This document shows, in pieces, positions 9,485 through 16,609 of a stretch of DNA of 64,000 bases. The notes below the pieces were generated by a model that did not search any database, was not told the DNA's origin, and saw nothing but the letters and a program-made list of their open reading frames with translations. The stretch's first letter is position 1, and every line of letters begins with the position of its first letter. The position numbers were made by a program, and so were the translations under genes. The DNA lies in sequence record OR352941.1. The stretch is one strand, 5' to 3'. This DNA is from Escherichia phage AV111.

Positions 9485-9894
9485 TACTTTTTCTTATGTT
9501 GGATATTCCAAGGCGGGTTGAACTTTTTGATAAAAAGTGGTTCTTCAAGGTCCATTGTTGCGATGGTCATTGAACCAAGTTCGTTGGTGACTGAAAGGTC
9601 AAAACATTGGCGGGCCCAGAATTCAACCTTTTTGCCTTGCATTAAGGCATCCAAAATCATAAGTGATTTTCTTGAATCTGAAGTCTGGTCTTTTCGATTT
9701 ATGGCTGTTCGATAATAGTTAATGCGTTTCTTTAAATTCTTGGTTTTACCAATATACACGAGTTCGTCATCTATAGCAATAGCATATATGACATTTTTCT
9801 TATTAGGGACATCAACTGTTTTAATTGTTGCATCTTCTAATAGCTCCAATTCTGTATATTTAATAAAGGAATATTCGGCGGCGATATCTTTCAT
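9484..9894 (-). CDS. denA: endonuclease II (GIY-YIG family), 136 aa
   Basis: GIY-YIG-like VYIGKT ... RINYY; length matches T4 DenA; position between rnlA and nrdB. Confidence 0.8.
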   Translation of the reverse strand: MKDIAAEYSFIKYTELELLEDATIKTVDVPNKKNVIYAIAIDDELVYIGKTKNLKKRINYYRTAINRKDQTSDSRKSLMILDALMQGKKVEFWARQCFDLSVTNELGSMTIATMDLEEPLFIKKFNPPWNIQHKKK

Positions 9895-9898
9895 AATA

Positions 9899-9917
9899 AA
9901 GTGGGACCGAAGTCCCG
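9899..9917 (-). other. stem-loop GGGAC-UUCG-GUCCC between nrdB and denA
   Basis: gggaccgaagtccc at 9902-9915. Confidence 0.35.
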
Positions 9918-9920
9918 TCC

Positions 9921-10423
9921 TTAGAAATATTTTTTGTATGAATTGATTACATTTTGGTCTACATCATTATCAATTTGTGCGACAAGATAAGAACTGATTT
10001 CAACTTCTTGTGGGGCTGCTTGAACCAAATCAGAGTTCAAATACTCACGAATCCATGGAATAGGATGACGAGTTGATACGTCTTTAAGAGGACATGGCAG
10101 ACCACAACTACGCATACGAGACACGGTAAGATAATCCACAAATTCACTTAGGATTTTAACATTTAGACCTGGAAGAGCACCATCTTTAAACAAGTGTTCA
10201 GCCCATTCTTTTTCTTGAGCGTTAACTTCCATGAAAATATCAACTGCTTCTTGTTCACACTCTTGAGCAATTTTGACCCATTCATCACCGTCTTCGCCAT
10301 CTTGTAAAGCACGAATAATATATTGAGTGCCCTTGAGGTGAAGCTGTTCATCACGAGCAATGAACTTCATAATCTTGGCATTACCTTCCATGATTTCCAT
10401 GTTCTTATGGAAGTTAAAGGTAC
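9921..10423 (-). CDS. nrdB: ribonucleotide reductase small subunit NrdB, exon 2
   Basis: Frame continues CTFNFHKNMEIMEGNAKIMKFIARDEQLH... when joined to exon 1 at the GCG-T / GT-ACC junction; ends ...SYKKYF. Confidence 0.8.
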
Positions 10424-11514
10424 CGTTATGTTCGATTGAGCTCGCTAATTCTCAACCCGTTCTCTTATGAACTGCTACATATTACTATGCAGACCAGACT
10501 ATATCACAATCCCGGAGGGATTCTCCCCATTTCGAGTCGCTTGACCCTACGTCCGAAGACTAGTCGTTGAACCTTGCTTTGCAATTGTCGCCGTGCCATC
10601 GTTTATATGTTGATGGTGATAAATCTTTCTTATCACAATATGGACAATTCAATTGAATTCTATTTGGATTTAATTTACATCTGTCATTATGTTTTAGATA
10701 AAATCCAGGACCTTTACCAATGTGACCACAGAAATCACATGTGATTTCTTTTTGTGCAGGATGGGTCCCGTTCTTAACCATTTCTAATGTTTTTGCTGAT
10801 GTTCTTTTCTTATGGTCTTCTGATAAGAAATGATGTGAACCGTCATTTACCCGTTTTGATTGAGTTTCTGACTGCATTTTACCACCGCAAAATACATGAG
10901 TACCTTCTTTTATAGCTGCAATATTACGTTCTTTGACTTTTGCAACATGCTCAGCTTGTTGAAAATTATGTATACCTAATGCAACTCTATTTAAATTAGA
11001 TTTACGTTGTATTTCACCACCTAAAAGATGAAATGTACCATTTTCTATCTTAGATTTAATAGAGGCAATATTTTTAGCTCGTACTTCAGGGATATTAAAA
11101 ATCTGGATTTCTCTAGATTTTGCGGCTTTAGAAGCTAATTCAGAAATTTCTTCAGGAGAATATTTCATTCTAAGCTTTATAGCATGACAAGCCTGGTAAT
11201 CTTTTTGAGCTAAATGTATATCATAATGTTCCTGTATAGAAAGGCACATCAAATTATCTAAATCATTATTTTCACGGTTACCGTCTTTATGATGGATTTC
11301 GTATGTTCTTCCATCAGAATCTTTAGGTATAGGTCCGTTAGCATCTATCCAAATTTTTCTATAGTTCAATTGTGCATCCTCTTAAAAGTATAATCATATT
11401 TATATTATACTAATTAAAGGTGCAAGCAAAACCTTGGCTGCTAGTTTTCCTATAAAGGACTTTCCAGCAATTAAAGGAGTTTTCGATAAACGTTACCGTT
11501 TAAAGGCGCATTTT
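10424..11514 (-). mobile_element. group I intron in nrdB (about 1.09 kb) carrying an I-TevIII-like homing endonuclease ORF
   Basis: Exon 1 ends with U (…UUU GCG U), intron ends with G (…CAUAACG); splicing restores codon UGU and the NrdB reading frame. Confidence 0.7.
10560..11369 (-). CDS. intron-encoded HNH homing endonuclease, I-TevIII-like, 269 aa
   Basis: HNH motif region (YEIHHKDGNRENNDLDNLMCLSIQEHYDIH) plus C-terminal Cys-rich zinc finger (CDFCGH ... CPYCDKK); inside the nrdB intron. Confidence 0.8.
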   Translation of the reverse strand: MNYRKIWIDANGPIPKDSDGRTYEIHHKDGNRENNDLDNLMCLSIQEHYDIHLAQKDYQACHAIKLRMKYSPEEISELASKAAKSREIQIFNIPEVRAKNIASIKSKIENGTFHLLGGEIQRKSNLNRVALGIHNFQQAEHVAKVKERNIAAIKEGTHVFCGGKMQSETQSKRVNDGSHHFLSEDHKKRTSAKTLEMVKNGTHPAQKEITCDFCGHIGKGPGFYLKHNDRCKLNPNRIQLNCPYCDKKDLSPSTYKRWHGDNCKARFND

Positions 11515-12190
11515 ACGCAAAAGATACATAAAAACGAATTGCTTCTAAGGCATTAATAACGTGCAAACAGAGGTAAAGAGATTTCATTAGCTCACGCTTC
11601 CAATATGTCTCATGCTCAATAGCATCTTCAATAACGTCTTCGTCTGCATTAATTTCTTTTTGGTATTCGATATCAGCTTTAGCGTTTTCCCAATAACGAG
11701 CTTTAACCAGAACATCATCATAATATCGTCCGATAGATTCGGCACGCTTCATAATAGCTTCATCTAATACAATCTCATCAAACACCTTCGATGGATCTGT
11801 ATAAAGATTTCGCATAATATGAGTATATGAACGAGAGTGAATAGTTTCACTGAAAGTCCATGTAGCAACCCATGTATCTAATGAAGGGTCTGAAAGCAAT
11901 GACATAAGTACCGCAGATGGTGCTCTACCTTGGATAGAATCTAATAATGATTGATACTTAAGGTTGTTGGTAAAGATGTCCTGTTGGAACTGTGGAAGCT
12001 TATTAAACTGGGCCGAATCCAACATCAAGTTTACTTCCTCGGGACGCCAAAAGAACGAGAGCTGCTTTTCGATAAGCTCTTCAAAAACTTTATGACGCTG
12101 AATATCATACCGTGCGAGGCCAAGACCAGAACCAAAGAACATCGGTTCATTCAAAACATCGACTTGTTGTGTGTTAAAAACTGTACTCAT
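11515..12190 (-). CDS. nrdB: ribonucleotide reductase small subunit NrdB, exon 1
   Basis: Class Ia R2 sequence ... ALEAIRFYVSFA; the in-frame stop immediately after is intronic. Confidence 0.8.
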
Positions 12191-12245
12191 TATATTTTCT
12201 CACCTAGTTATTAACTCATCCATGAGTAAATTATAATAAAAAGTC

Positions 12246-13235
12246 TTAAAGCTTACAAGCAGAACAATCTTCTGCTTTAGGTGTTTCTAATTCATAGTCG
12301 TCTGTACCAGACCCATCACGAGTGTTATGATAGTAGAGGTTTTTTCCGCCAAAGTACCAGAAGTAAAGCAGATCGTCAAGCATTACTGACATTGGCACTT
12401 TACCTTTCTCAAATACTGCAGGGTCATAGTAAGTATTAGCAGAAGCAGATTGGCACACCCATTTCAACATGATAGCAACTTGGGTCAAATAAGGTTTATT
12501 ACCTTTCTTAGCAAGTTTCCACGCGTAGTCGTAAAGACTCATGTTATGTTCTATATTAGGAACAACCTGACGGAAGTTGCCTTCTTTAGATTCTTTAATA
12601 CTTACTGGACCACGTGGTGGCTCAATCCCGTTTGTAGAGTTTGATACTTGACTGCTTGACTCACAAGGCATGAGTGCAGACAACGTTGAGTTACGAATTC
12701 CATGTTCTTTGAGTTCAGCTCGAAGTTCTTCCCAGTCACAGACGTAGTTCGGGGCTGCGATTTGGTCAATCTTTTTATTGTACCAGTCGATAGGTAATTC
12801 GCCTCTAGACCATTTAGTGTCTGAATAATACTCGCAACATCCTTTTTCTTTGGCGAGTTTGATTGATGCTTTGATAAGGCCATATTGCAATCTCTCAAAC
12901 AATTCATGAGTCAAATCGTTAGCGTCTTCATATGAAGCAAAGTTAGAAGCTAACCATGCGGCATAGTTCGTCACACCAACACCGAGGTTTCGACGCTTTT
13001 TAGCTTTTAAAGCTTCTGGAACCGGATAATCTTGATAGTCTAACAGGTTATCAAGTGCACGTACTTGTACTTCAGCAAGTTCATTAATTTTATCTTGGTC
13101 TTGCCAATCAAATTTATCTAATACAAAAGCAGATAATGTGCAAAGGCCCACTTCACCTTTGTTTTCAATAACTTGTATTGTTGTATACTCATCATCTTCG
13201 TAAAATTCATCTACAAATTCATAATCAATATTCAT
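12246..13235 (-). CDS. nrdA: ribonucleotide reductase large subunit, C-terminal piece (nrdA-b), 329 aa with about 26 aa novel N-terminal leader
   Basis: From GEVGLCTLSAF onward aligns to the C-terminal third of class Ia NrdA (…NSTLSALMPCESSSQVSNSTNGIEPP…, C-terminal CSACKL). Confidence 0.8.
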   Translation of the reverse strand: MNIDYEFVDEFYEDDEYTTIQVIENKGEVGLCTLSAFVLDKFDWQDQDKINELAEVQVRALDNLLDYQDYPVPEALKAKKRRNLGVGVTNYAAWLASNFASYEDANDLTHELFERLQYGLIKASIKLAKEKGCCEYYSDTKWSRGELPIDWYNKKIDQIAAPNYVCDWEELRAELKEHGIRNSTLSALMPCESSSQVSNSTNGIEPPRGPVSIKESKEGNFRQVVPNIEHNMSLYDYAWKLAKKGNKPYLTQVAIMLKWVCQSASANTYYDPAVFEKGKVPMSVMLDDLLYFWYFGGKNLYYHNTRDGSGTDDYELETPKAEDCSACKL

Positions 13236-13935
13236 TTAATTCTTCTACCTTTTTTCGAGATATTCCTAGAGCTTTAGATGCTCGATGTATTGATTGATAT
13301 TCTATACCGTTTATTTTTACAGCAATTAAGTTATGGGGTTTTAATCCCTTTGGATGAGGTTTACTGACGTATTCTTGATTATCGTTTTCAGAGATATTAT
13401 CAAGCTTTCGACACTTAAAGCCTTTATGTTGAGACCTTTTGCCTTTGCATACGGCCGACATTGCCGAAGCATTGAGTGAATGTAGTTCGCAAAATTCTCT
13501 TAGGCCTTTATGGATTTCTTCATGACCGTCCGGGAAAGTAAATACCCAAGTTGTTTGAAGTTTTTCTCTATGCTCGTCAGTTACCGGAATACCTTTGTTC
13601 CAAGCTGGTTTGCCTTTATTATTTTCAGATACAGAAATAGCCAATTTTCTTCTAAGCCACCCATGGCGTTTATTGGTGTTCTTTCGTTCAATATTATCTT
13701 CAGAATAAACACACATCATATTAGCGGCAAATACCAATTTATGATTATCTGGATATATCTTTACTAATAATTGATGAGCTATGTAATGCTCTTCGGGTGT
13801 CAAATCTACCAGGTTTTCCTTTGTATCAGAACCACCAATACACAGAGGTATAATATGGTGTGATTCGGTATAGCAATCTAATTTTCTGTTCTTAGCTTTA
13901 GAAATAAGGTTATTGTAAATTTTAGAATAATCCAT
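13225..13935 (-). CDS. HNH homing endonuclease (Mob-like), 236 aa, inserted inside nrdA
   Basis: N-terminal Mob-family signature MDYSKIYNNLISKAKNRKL...HHIIPLCIGGSDTKENLVDLTPEEHYIAHQLL; own start, overlaps the nrdA-b start by 11 nt. Confidence 0.8.
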   Translation of the reverse strand: MDYSKIYNNLISKAKNRKLDCYTESHHIIPLCIGGSDTKENLVDLTPEEHYIAHQLLVKIYPDNHKLVFAANMMCVYSEDNIERKNTNKRHGWLRRKLAISVSENNKGKPAWNKGIPVTDEHREKLQTTWVFTFPDGHEEIHKGLREFCELHSLNASAMSAVCKGKRSQHKGFKCRKLDNISENDNQEYVSKPHPKGLKPHNLIAVKINGIEYQSIHRASKALGISRKKVEELNEY

Positions 13936-13980
13936 AACTTTTCCTCTTGTTATGGATTATTTATTAACGGCCTGTGTACT

Positions 13981-15405
13981 TTATTTGCTTTGAATTATAC
14001 CGCCAGGATTAGCTTCATAAAACTTAGCTACATCCGACTTCTTAATTTTGATTAAACGGGTTTGTTGGCTATTCACATCATTAGTTGGAATAGCGATTTC
14101 ACAACATAAGTTACTTTGACGAATTGGAGCTTTTTCACGAATAAATGGAGTGTAGTTATTCGTGTTATCAACAAACTGCGGATAAATTCGAGCAGTGCCA
14201 GAACGTTCAGTCATGAACAATTCAAAGAGTTCTAGTGCTTTGATTCTTTTCTTTCTGATTGTTGGGTCTTTTTCAGCTTTCTCATAAAGCTCATGGAATT
14301 TATCTTGATCTTCAAAGAACGAGTAGTATAGTTCGCCTGACATTTCGTGAGGGCTAAATAAAGTAATATAATCATTTTTACCAAGGCGTTCCATCATAAG
14401 GTCATTAATCTGAATTCCGTAGTCCATATGTCGAATACGGTTTTCATCTACGCCTTTGTTATTTTTCAGAACTAATAGGTTCTCTACTTCTAAGTGCCAC
14501 ATTGGATAATACGCTGTAGCAGCACCACCACGAATACCACCTTGAGAACAAGATTTTACTGCAGTTTGGAAATGTTTCCAGAATGGAATAACACCCGTAT
14601 GTCGAACTTCACCCATACCGATCTTAGAACCTTCTGCACGAAGCATACCAACGTTGATACCGATACCAGCTCGTTTAGAAATATATTCAATAATTGATGC
14701 TGAAGTTTTGTTAATAGATTTTAACGAATCACCGGCTTCAATAACTACACAACTAGAGAACTGGCGAGTCGGAGTACGAGCACCTGCCATAATTGGAGTA
14801 GGCAATGAAACTTGATGAGTAGAAACGGCATCATAAAAACGAATAATATGTTTCAAACGGTTATGAGTTTCGTCTTGGTGTAAGGCCATACCAATAGCCA
14901 TGATAGCAAACTGGGGAGTTTCATAAATCTTCCCAGTTGTTTTATCTTTAACTAGATATTTTTCTTTAAGCTGCATAGCACCAGCATAAGTCAGGTCAAA
15001 GTCTCGGTCATGTTTAATCTGTGAATCGAGATAAATGATTTCTTCTGCTGAATATTGAGACAACAGCTCAGGGTCATATTTGCCTTCATTAACACAGTAA
15101 GAAATATGGTCGATAAAAGCAGGCGGTTCAAACTGCCCGTATACATCTTTACGAAGTGCAAACATTAGCCCTTTGGCGGCGACATACTGATAATCAGGTT
15201 CTTCGACAGAAATCAAGTTAGCTGCAACTTTAATACAAATCTTCTGAATATCTTTGGTGCTCATCCCATCGACAAGATGGGTCTTAATTTCTTCGTACAA
15301 TTCATATGGGTCAATTTGTGTTCCTTCACATTGCCAAGTTAAGACTTTAATAATTTTCTGTGCATCAAAATTTTGGGATACACCACTGCTCTTATTTACT
15401 TGCAT
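13981..15405 (-). CDS. nrdA: ribonucleotide reductase large subunit, N-terminal piece (nrdA-a), 474 aa with about 29 aa novel C-terminal tail
   Basis: ATP-cone/R1 N-terminus through the active-site strand NLCCEIAIPTNDVN, then diverges and stops. Confidence 0.8.
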   Translation of the reverse strand: MQVNKSSGVSQNFDAQKIIKVLTWQCEGTQIDPYELYEEIKTHLVDGMSTKDIQKICIKVAANLISVEEPDYQYVAAKGLMFALRKDVYGQFEPPAFIDHISYCVNEGKYDPELLSQYSAEEIIYLDSQIKHDRDFDLTYAGAMQLKEKYLVKDKTTGKIYETPQFAIMAIGMALHQDETHNRLKHIIRFYDAVSTHQVSLPTPIMAGARTPTRQFSSCVVIEAGDSLKSINKTSASIIEYISKRAGIGINVGMLRAEGSKIGMGEVRHTGVIPFWKHFQTAVKSCSQGGIRGGAATAYYPMWHLEVENLLVLKNNKGVDENRIRHMDYGIQINDLMMERLGKNDYITLFSPHEMSGELYYSFFEDQDKFHELYEKAEKDPTIRKKRIKALELFELFMTERSGTARIYPQFVDNTNNYTPFIREKAPIRQSNLCCEIAIPTNDVNSQQTRLIKIKKSDVAKFYEANPGGIIQSK

Positions 15406-15492
15406 ATATTCCTCAGTATAGGTTGATAGACATTACTCCAAACGGGATAGTATTTATCCCGTTAATTTATTATACACTTTTAAACTGAAGCG

Positions 15493-15747
15493 TTAATTAT
15501 CCTCAGCAATAATTTCTTCGTATTCTTTAGGTGTCAAGACTGTGATATCGAAATAAACCAACGGTTCTTTTTCCATACCGTAACCACCACAGAATTCACG
15601 ATATTCATAAATTCGTTCATGTGAATAACAAATGAATCGTTCACCTTTAACTGTGATTTCACTATTCGGTGAAGGGATATCCAGTTCGGTAGGATTTTTC
15701 ATTTCAAAAATTGTGGTGCCATATGAATTAATAAAACGTAAAATCAT
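15493..15747 (-). CDS. hypothetical protein, 84 aa (nrdA.1 position)
   Basis: ORF track. Confidence 0.5.
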   Translation of the reverse strand: MILRFINSYGTTIFEMKNPTELDIPSPNSEITVKGERFICYSHERIYEYREFCGGYGMEKEPLVYFDITVLTPKEYEEIIAEDN

Positions 15748-15748
15748 T

Positions 15749-16609
15749 TTATACCGCCATTTTAGCTTTGATAGCTGGATGAGATTCGTAATTTTTAAGA
15801 ACGAAATCAGAATGTGTCATCGTTCCAGTAACCCAGTCCATTTGGATTTTTGTAGGCCAATTCTCAAAATTACTAGGCCAATTAATTTCAAGAGAACATA
15901 ACTCTTTAGGTTCACGACGAAGAACTTCTTTGCATTGTTCTACATGATTGCTGTAGATATGCGTGTTGCCGCCTGAGAACACTAAATCACCTGGAATAAG
16001 GTTACACATCTTCGCTACAATATGCGTTAAGGCAGCGTACGAGGCGATGTTGAACGGCAGGCCCAAGAAAACATCTACACTGCGTTGATACCATTGTAAA
16101 TCAAGATGTCCATTACGCACATTAAATTGATAGAACATATGACAAGGAGGAAGAGCCATTTGGTCAATTTCGGCTGGGTTCCATGCAGAAACTATTTGAC
16201 GACGATCATTAGGAAGAGCTTTAATACGGTCGATAGTTTTGACCAATTGGTCTACACCACCAAAATCACGCCATTGCTTACCATAAATAGGACCAAGTTC
16301 GCCGCTATGATATCCAAGGTCTTTTGCCTGATTTTCATAGTTGTCGTCCCAAATAGTTTTACCTTCAATTAGACTGCCATGAGTACGAATACGCAAATCA
16401 TTAACATTGGTAGAACCAGACATGAACCACAGTAACTCGGCAATACAAGCTTTCCATGCTAATTTCTTAGTTGTTACTGCAGGGAATCCTTTAGTCAGAT
16501 CCCATCGTAATTTAGTTCCGAACAGAGCAATAGTGCCGGTACCTGTACGGTCGTCTGTTTCGTAGCCATTTTCTAAGATATCTTTAATCAGGTATTGGTA
16601 TTGTTTCAT
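15749..16609 (-). CDS. td: thymidylate synthase, 286 aa, uninterrupted
   Basis: Canonical TS sequence as one continuous ORF. Confidence 0.9.
   Translation of the reverse strand: MKQYQYLIKDILENGYETDDRTGTGTIALFGTKLRWDLTKGFPAVTTKKLAWKACIAELLWFMSGSTNVNDLRIRTHGSLIEGKTIWDDNYENQAKDLGYHSGELGPIYGKQWRDFGGVDQLVKTIDRIKALPNDRRQIVSAWNPAEIDQMALPPCHMFYQFNVRNGHLDLQWYQRSVDVFLGLPFNIASYAALTHIVAKMCNLIPGDLVFSGGNTHIYSNHVEQCKEVLRREPKELCSLEINWPSNFENWPTKIQMDWVTGTMTHSDFVLKNYESHPAIKAKMAV

Follow-up and report, generated by a model that had tools for sequence, protein, structure and literature searches.

The 64,000-nucleotide (nt) window analysed here comes from Escherichia phage AV111 (sequence record OR352941.1) and carries nrdA, which encodes the class Ia ribonucleotide reductase (RNR) large subunit, as two open reading frames (ORFs) placed around a gene for an HNH endonuclease. 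All three ORFs lie on the minus strand and encode 474, 236 and 329 amino acids (aa); the ORF listing gives exactly the coordinates proposed in an earlier note made from the sequence alone. A comparable nrdA-a/mobE/nrdA-b system, that of Aeromonas phage Aeh1, was reportedly described by Friedrich et al. in PNAS in 2007. The features of the locus are as follows, with the type of evidence in brackets.

13981..15405, minus strand: nrdA-a, 474 aa, N-terminal part of the large subunit of class Ia RNR (ORF listing, Pfam, structure alignment)
13225..13935, minus strand: free-standing HNH homing endonuclease of the 'MobE-split' type, 236 aa (ORF listing, Pfam, homology)
12246..13235, minus strand: nrdA-b, 329 aa, C-terminal piece with the second barrel half (ORF listing, Pfam, structure alignment)
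13143..14070, no strand assigned: mobile cassette, 928 nt in place of 24 nt of the intact allele (allele comparison)
13984..14070, minus strand: C-terminal tail of NrdA-a (CTE), 29 aa, SQQTRLIKIKKSDVAKFYEANPGGIIQSK, basic (allele comparison, Aeh1 homology)
13158..13235, minus strand: N-terminal tail of NrdA-b (NTE), 26 aa, MNIDYEFVDEFYEDDEYTTIQVIENK, acidic (allele comparison, Aeh1 homology)
13958..13965, minus strand: late-promoter-like box AATAAATA, 7/8 matches to the T4 sequence TATAAATA (sequence match; function by analogy)
13926..13961, minus strand: RNA hairpin with a 13-bp stem over the start of the HNH gene (folding, covariation)

Pfam assigns to nrdA-a the ATP-cone, the all-alpha domain Ribonuc_red_lgN and positions 1-221 of the 523-position barrel, and to nrdA-b barrel positions 219-523. 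Alignment to E. coli NrdA structures pairs residues 3-447 of nrdA-a with E. coli NrdA 7-455 (E 1e-161) and residues 23-323 of nrdA-b with 453-751 (E 2.5e-93); in E. coli coordinates, the N piece reaches about position 455 and the C piece begins at about 453. The catalytic residues are present in both pieces, with C219, N432, C434 and E436 of nrdA-a corresponding to E. coli C225, N437, C439 and E441, and C32, Y301/Y302 and the Cys pair C324/C327 of nrdA-b corresponding to C462, Y730/Y731 and C754/C759. Comparison of the break with NrdA structures, a check suggested in the earlier note, maps it to the surface loop that joins the Cys439/Glu441 strand to the Cys462 strand (E. coli numbering).

The N piece reads through ..SNLCCEIAIPTNDVN and then enters an unrelated 29-aa tail, SQQTRLIKIKKSDVAKFYEANPGGIIQSK, before its stop; both the ORF listing and the allele comparison bear out the description of this tail in the earlier note. 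The C piece opens with MNIDYEFVDEFYEDDEYTTIQVIENK, and its RNR homology picks up at GEVGLCTLSAF. The distance from the nrdA-a stop to the HNH ATG is 45 nt, and the HNH gene and nrdA-b share an 11-nt overlap, values that correct the earlier estimates of about 46 nt and essentially none. The nrdA-b ATG is located within the 3' end of the HNH gene. The spacer between nrdA-b and nrdB measures 55 nt and holds no ORF. Continuous translation of nrdA-a and the HNH gene is excluded: the two share a frame, yet two TAA codons intervene.

The boundaries of the insert were defined by comparison with Mosigvirus APCEc01, which has an intact nrdA and is 99% identical; the flanks of the insert are 97-100% identical to such Mosigvirus phages. 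The intact APCEc01 allele reads ..IPTNDVN-GPDAEI-GLCTLSAF, and intact Tequatrovirus alleles read ..NDVN-SPDAEI-GLC. In the split allele, the N piece reads ..IPTNDVN followed by SQQTRLIKIKKSDVAKFYEANPGGIIQSK and a stop, and the C piece reads MNIDYEFVDEFYEDDEYTTIQVI-ENKGEV-GLCTLSAF. ENKGEV thus stands where the native six-residue loop (G/S)PDAEI would be, and the foreign leader amounts to about 23 aa; the 26-aa leader described in the earlier note is present, but only this shorter part of it is truly foreign. ENKGEV, which resembles the E. coli loop DENGEI, probably came from the nrdA of the donor. The ends of the cassette are sharp, on the left directly after ..AATGATGTGAAT and on the right at about 13143. 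It is made up of the CTE, a regulatory spacer, the HNH gene, the NTE and loop codons of donor type, with 135 nt of foreign sequence upstream of the HNH ORF and about 80 nt downstream. Furthermore, the insertion breaks up the presumed target, whose intact form reads ..AATGATGTGAAT(G/A)GTCCTGATGCTGAAATTGG...

The cassette and its surroundings have different relatives. Compared in bins of 100 nt, the window and Tequatrovirus HY01 share 99-100% identity over 13225..14024, while the nrdA flanks on both sides are only 66-88% identical to that phage. An HNH protein 100% identical to that of the window is encoded by HY01, UFV-AREG1, REP2/3, IME537 and SH-1. This disparity is strong evidence, drawn from sequence comparison, that the whole cassette, tails included, was recently moved between genera by its endonuclease.

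Immediately to the right of the cassette (13090..13143), phage vB_EcoM-ZQ3 (L002) carries several Tequatrovirus substitutions of the HY01 type at positions where the window is native Mosigvirus. ZQ3, otherwise 98% identical to the window, therefore has a longer donor-like tract on its right flank. Co-conversion tracts of differing length point to separate homing or repair events in these close relatives, and variable right-flank tracts are what variable co-conversion in homing would give. The cassettes of the vB_EcoM_112/fPS-2 type are mosaic (vB_EcoM_112, L005 3260..3560, against window 13325..13625): their tails and the N-half of the HNH gene are 95-100% identical to the window, and the C-half of the endonuclease gene is 71-82% identical at the nucleotide level. 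This suggests recombination or diversifying change inside the cassette.

The two tails, neither of which is present in intact NrdA, have opposite chemistry. The CTE has an isoelectric point (pI) of 10.0 and a charge of +3.5, and the NTE a pI of 4.05 and a charge of -8.5. Both align with the corresponding tails of Aeh1, the CTE as RLIKIKKSDVAKF against MLFKVKKSEVDKF and the NTE as YEDDEYTTIQV against YEDEEYTTVEI. Across the 11 cassettes compared, the charge ranges from +2.8 to +6.4 for the CTE and from -7.5 to -14.5 for the NTE. The CTE motif L[IVF]K[IV][KR]K.[DE][IV]..F and the NTE motif ED[DE]EYTT[ILV][EQK][IV] are kept in all 11, ED[DE]EYTT being invariant. The codons behind these motifs vary freely, with CTT, TTA, CTA, CTG and TTG all used for Leu and ACA, ACT, ACC and ACG for Thr; summed over all pairs of the 11 cassettes, synonymous codon-pair differences at the conserved motifs number 178 for the CTE and 139 for the NTE. 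Conservation as peptides with synonymous variation implies that the tails are translated rather than part of an intron RNA, and the codon pattern indicates that they are under purifying selection as protein.

The endonuclease combines an N-terminal HNH domain, in which the motif HH..P..GG.D..N..H..H is readable, with a distinct C-terminal DNA-binding half of NUMOD-like type (Pfam, I-HmuI NUMOD-like domain). It is homologous to Aeh1 MobE over its full length (48% identity across 229 aa, E 3e-62), in agreement with the earlier classification as a Mob-type HNH protein, and its C-terminal half is 49.6% identical to the Aeh1 protein over 93% of its length. The first ~125 aa are ~43-45% identical to endonucleases located downstream of nrdA. 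Among the matches listed for the C-terminal 136 aa (60 of 87), full-length matches occur only in 34 enterobacterial T-even records and in Aeh1, and T4-type MobE is absent from these 60 of the 87 records. With T4-type MobE missing from these matches, the target of the HNH protein is presumably nrdA itself and not nrdB. It would presumably cut or nick the cassette-free nrdA of co-infecting phages.

By homology in all its parts, tails included, the window element belongs to the insertion type of Aeh1 mobE, which upholds the precedent named in the earlier note. In Aeh1, nrdA-A encodes 473 aa, mobE 237 aa and nrdA-B 323 aa (474, 236 and 329 aa here), the gap is 46 nt (45 here) and the overlap 14 nt (11 here). 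The break falls in the same loop, with Aeh1 Cys219, Cys431 and Cys31 corresponding to C219, C434 and C32. Both elements have a basic CTE, an acidic NTE, a homologous full-length HNH protein whose gene overlaps nrdA-b, a hairpin over the endonuclease start, a late-promoter-like box and a spacer of about 45 nt. They differ in lineage and host, Aeh1 being a Cinqassovirus of Aeromonas and the present copies belonging to enterobacterial Mosigvirus and Tequatrovirus phages, with NrdA 54-62% identical. They also differ in hairpin sequence, the Aeh1 hairpin burying the Shine-Dalgarno sequence (SD) and that of the window the AUG.

The Aeh1 system has been biochemically characterised. Both Aeh1 polypeptides were purified from infected cells, mass spectrometry found the tails on the mature proteins, and there was no splicing (PMC3045599). 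The Aeh1 tails have pI values of 10.4 and 3.8, and the (αa/αb)2β2 enzyme has full activity (PMC3045599). In tail-deleted proteins αa still pairs with αb, but the heterodimers no longer dimerise in response to dATP, NrdB is no longer bound tightly and activity is lost (PMC3045599). In 2010 no database sequence matched the Aeh1 tails, which were regarded as unique, and a degenerate-intein origin was raised (Crona et al. 2010, NAR, PMC3045599).

The region between nrdA-a and the HNH gene contains a further conserved structure. The 13-bp hairpin holds an SD, AAGAGGAAAA, in its loop and the HNH AUG and first codons in its 3' arm, and the late-promoter-like box overlaps its 5' arm. It is part of a fold of -14.2 kcal/mol over a 101-nt segment (z -2.4). 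When seven cassettes are aligned, 96.6% of cells pair and compensatory changes occur at three of the pairs, for example codon 2 as GAC, AAC or GAT together with GTC, GTT or ATC in the 5' arm. This covariation score was reached by 0 of 500 shuffles, and slid controls drop to 30-47% paired. The Aeh1 hairpin is equally placed. Every cassette has a (T/A/C)ATAAATA box over the 5' arm; it is exactly TATAAATA in the metagenomic contigs L088, L089 and L093 and one mismatch away from it in the remaining cassettes.

For I-TevI, I-TevII, I-TevIII, segB and Aeh1 mobE, early and middle read-through transcripts form a hairpin and are not translated, and the late transcripts begin within the hairpin and are translated (PMC2988022). 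The hairpin and box of the window match this mechanism, and by analogy the endonuclease would be expressed late. All 11 cassettes also have a GT(A/G)CA motif in the spacer (here AAGTACACAG, 13975..13979, minus strand), placed after the nrdA-a stop and before the late-promoter-like box; the Aeh1 copy falls inside the hairpin loop. An operator in the style of I-TevI is not supported, since the motif does not consistently resemble the homing site; it may be a processing site.

The arrangement is not confined to the window. At the DNA level, a search of the phage collection finds the whole 3.4-kb layout, with both nrdA ORFs open, in 32 phage records; this search carries out the comparison of the junction with other T4-like genomes that had been suggested earlier. 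Among the matches listed, the layout is found in ~34 deposited enterobacterial T-even genomes, ~4% of the ~840 records with a matching nrdA region, and is annotated in vB_EcoM_112, so the rarity implied by the earlier note does not hold. Identical or near-identical cassettes are carried by vB_EcoM-ZQ3 (98.3% identical to the window across 3.4 kb), F2, JM17, HY01, UFV-AREG1, PEC04, vB_EcoM_112, fPS-2, fPS-90, IME537 and others. The coliphage copies are deposited as two NrdA pieces and a homing endonuclease, the middle gene of vB_EcoM_112 being annotated as MobE, and they keep the three-gene layout of the window.

At the protein level, full-length relatives of the HNH protein are 51-89% identical. 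They include seven metagenomic contigs (L087-L093; HNH 51-67% identical), all of which contain NrdA-a, HNH and NrdA-b; their gaps measure 38-81 nt and their overlaps 1-20 nt. Across the 11 cassettes NrdA has diverged to 55-78% identity, and both ORFs are still open. Scanning IMG/VR with the HNH alignment yielded Aeh1, loci with a canonical intergenic mobE and nrdA genes fractured by inteins, and no further cassette of the MobE-split type. A 39% identical HNH relative, P0041, is not located in nrdA.

Collectively, these findings make it very probable that nrdA is a split gene whose products assemble through the tails, without splicing. The earlier preference for a split over a spliced gene is thereby sustained by the absence of an intron core and of an intein, and by the conservation of the tails as protein. 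Four other explanations have to be weighed. That the insertion killed nrdA, the ORFs now decaying and the phage relying on host NrdAB or on its own anaerobic NrdD, is very improbable. Phage aerobic RNR is, as a matter of general knowledge, dispensable under some laboratory conditions, which would permit such a loss. Both pieces are nevertheless full length with all catalytic residues intact, the ORFs remain open in 11 cassettes despite the divergence of NrdA noted above, and the tails are under purifying selection; the Aeh1 enzyme, moreover, is fully active (PMC3045599).

Still less likely is a group I intron: on this view, the 928-nt insert would carry its ORF as intron sequence and be spliced out to restore nrdA, joining AATGATGTGAAT to GGTGAAGTG or nearby sequence, and the tails would be intron that merely happens to be open. 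T-even RNR genes do carry such introns, and nrdB in the window has one. The size argument of the earlier note against an intron counted only the gap outside the ORFs; with 135 and ~80 nt of foreign flank outside the HNH ORF, which is not far under a minimal core, size is not decisive. However, no Intron_gpI or other Rfam match is found in 12100-15500 at E<=1, although the nrdB intron, 2 kb away, is detected; likewise, the Rfam scan of 9500-16000 for a group I core in the nrdA insert found only the nrdB intron (33.8 bits, E 7e-6). An RNA core would conserve nucleotides and pairings, so the conservation of the tails as amino acids, with free synonymous variation among cassettes whose HNH proteins are 48-67% identical, counts against an intron. 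Precise excision would also leave a loop three residues shorter than that of any intact relative, and in Aeh1 the mature proteins bear the tails without splicing (PMC3045599).

The possibility that the tails are halves of a (mini) split intein, by which the polypeptides are ligated through trans-splicing, or a still-active remnant of one, is very slight. Related metagenomic nrdA genes (L026, L029) are fractured by genuine split inteins around a homing endonuclease (PMC2677866), Crona et al. raised a degenerate-intein origin (PMC3045599), the NTE sequence EYTTIQV loosely resembles the block F sequence VYDITV, and contig L028, in which a homing endonuclease splits nrdA in the same loop as in the window, has a weak Intein_splicing match (E 0.03). 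The tails of 29 and ~26 aa are, however, too short to make up the two halves of a Hint fold. They lack a terminal HN and a conserved Cys, Ser or Thr nucleophile, the CTE beginning with S here, K in Aeh1 and G, D or T elsewhere, and the Aeh1 proteins retain their tails (PMC3045599). Intein families searched against the fused CTE and NTE of four cassettes gave no match (Pfam, E<=10), whereas the control halves from L026 gave 9e-16. An artefact of sequencing or assembly, such as a chimeric join or a frameshift, is practically negligible, since phages that come from several countries and hosts and were sequenced independently have nucleotide-identical junctions.

In the split-gene, tail-assembly model, a 0.93-kb cassette would have entered the nrdA loop between the Cys439/Glu441 and Cys462 strands, bringing an HNH endonuclease, a 29-codon basic CTE, an acidic NTE of ~23-26 codons with its own ATG, and a regulatory spacer. 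Each half would be translated on its own, and both would come together in an (NrdA-a/NrdA-b)2-NrdB2 holoenzyme whose active site is composite. As in the homologous Aeh1 enzyme, the tails of opposite charge would be needed for dimerisation of the heterodimers and for NrdB binding. The hairpin that buries the AUG probably silences the endonuclease on early and middle read-through transcripts, and late expression would proceed from the TATAAATA-like promoter, with transcripts beginning within the 5' arm of the hairpin. During co-infection, the endonuclease would nick or cut a cassette-free nrdA, and repair would copy the whole cassette, tails included. With the tails co-copied, invasion would be phenotypically silent in a single step.

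Several observations weigh against this model. Upstream of the nrdA-b ATG (window 13236..13260, minus strand) there is only a weak SD-like sequence, AAGGTAGAAGAATTAAATG, with which the supply of NrdA-b in amounts matching NrdA-a is not obvious. The nrdA-b start also sits within the 3' end of the endonuclease gene, which is presumably not translated at early times. The box of the window, AATAAATA, is one mismatch from the consensus, and the hairpin buries only the AUG and leaves the SD in the loop. The function of the split enzyme and its tails is proposed by analogy with the Aeh1 homologue, whose NrdA is only 54-62% identical. As regards splicing, the U at the 5' junction and the G at the 3' junction fit a group I intron, and the control nrdB intron scored below the Rfam gathering threshold (33.8 bits), such that a degenerate or atypical core split around an ORF could escape detection.

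A broader reading, to which we give about an even chance, is that the cassette is a self-contained 'split-and-rescue' module, consisting of an endonuclease, a conserved pair of charged tails that acts as a portable assembly domain, and a late-expression switch. Such a module would allow one-step invasion of an essential coding sequence without an intron or an intein. The cassette demonstrably moves from one phage genus to another and, on a longer time scale, between phages of Aeromonas and of enterobacteria. The tails might, in addition, be all that is left of a split intein. If the reading is correct, the tails represent a third general strategy beside RNA splicing and protein splicing, and not a one-off accident of Aeh1. 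The idea was sketched by Crona et al. (2010, PMC3045599) and also appears as an unpublished remark in a 2022 preprint; to demonstrate it systematically would be new.

This kind of split nrdA is already known from the work on Aeh1 (PMC3045599) and a review (PMC2988022), and a 2022 preprint mentions the arrangement. The genome papers of vB_EcoM_112 and HY01 do not discuss the split, and in the accessible part of a 2013 survey of phage RNRs Aeh1 is the only endonuclease-split nrdA discussed. New in the present analysis are the homology of the tails across the family, the protein-level selection on them, the near-identical cassettes in diverged nrdA genes and the comparative support for the hairpin. 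The tails of Aeh1, whose origin was open in 2010, now prove to be conserved throughout a family of cassettes that occurs in Aeromonas phages, in two genera of enterobacterial T-even phages and in metagenomes. This conservation, together with the 99-100% identity of cassettes in nrdA genes that are only 66-88% identical, supports the view of a mobile element that brings its own 'antidote' to gene fragmentation. The cassette-bearing phage and the 99%-identical, cassette-free APCEc01 together form a genetically tractable, E. coli-based system, which could serve to study homing into coding sequence and the structural role of the tails, and to try the latter as portable tags for heterodimerisation. 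In genome annotation, neither nrdA ORF should be called a pseudogene, nor should an intron be assumed to split them.

Three other systems share some of these properties. T4 MobE resembles the window endonuclease in its N-terminal HNH domain of Mob type and its location in the nrd operon. It differs in lying between nrdA and nrdB, with nrdA intact, in targeting nrdB, and in having an unrelated C-terminal half; the window endonuclease lies inside nrdA. The T4 mobA/gene 39-gene 60 topoisomerase locus is alike in that a Mob-type HNH gene splits the gene of an essential enzyme, with C- and N-terminal extensions added and products that assemble without splicing; in contrast to the present case, it involves another host gene, unrelated extensions and a coupled translational bypass element. 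Finally, metagenomic nrdA genes fractured by split inteins with an intervening homing endonuclease have been described (Dassa et al. 2009, PMC2677866). These also present nrdA as two ORFs around an endonuclease, and charge complementarity of the added peptides has been proposed for them, but the insertion is at NLC|C and the Hint-fold halves, ending in HN, trans-splice to give one polypeptide, features that the window tails lack.

The neighbouring nrdB (9921..12190, minus strand) is interrupted as well, by an insert of ~1.1 kb relative to the intact nrdB of APCEc01 (about 10422..11519). The insert contains a 269-aa HNH_3 ORF (10560..11369) that is I-TevIII-like and a match to the group I intron family RF00028 at 10475..10715. 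We take this ORF to be the full-length RB3 type of I-TevIII. The nrdB intron is present in vB_EcoM_112 and missing from ZQ3, F2, HY01 and APCEc01; ZQ3, F2 and HY01 thus differ from the window in this respect although they carry the nrdA cassette. One operon would thus contain two solutions to gene interruption, intron splicing in nrdB and, as predicted here, tail-mediated assembly in nrdA.

Among the metagenomic relatives, L088 (607..2451) has one nrdA with both a cis-intein at the catalytic Cys (..NLC|LSGDS...ILVHN|CLEIAIPT; Pfam PT-HINT/Intein_splicing) and a MobE-split cassette, its tails conserved, ~14 residues downstream. L026 (54..3001) and L029 (30..2957) carry their split inteins at NLC|C, with the endonuclease ORF between the halves and a canonical mobE after nrdA. 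In L028 (257..2944, IMG/VR), the ORF that splits nrdA is GIY-YIG-like and the tails are unrelated to those of the window; its N-tail, KLSLDDGTEVLIPG.., which gives the weak Intein_splicing match, is possibly a decayed split intein.

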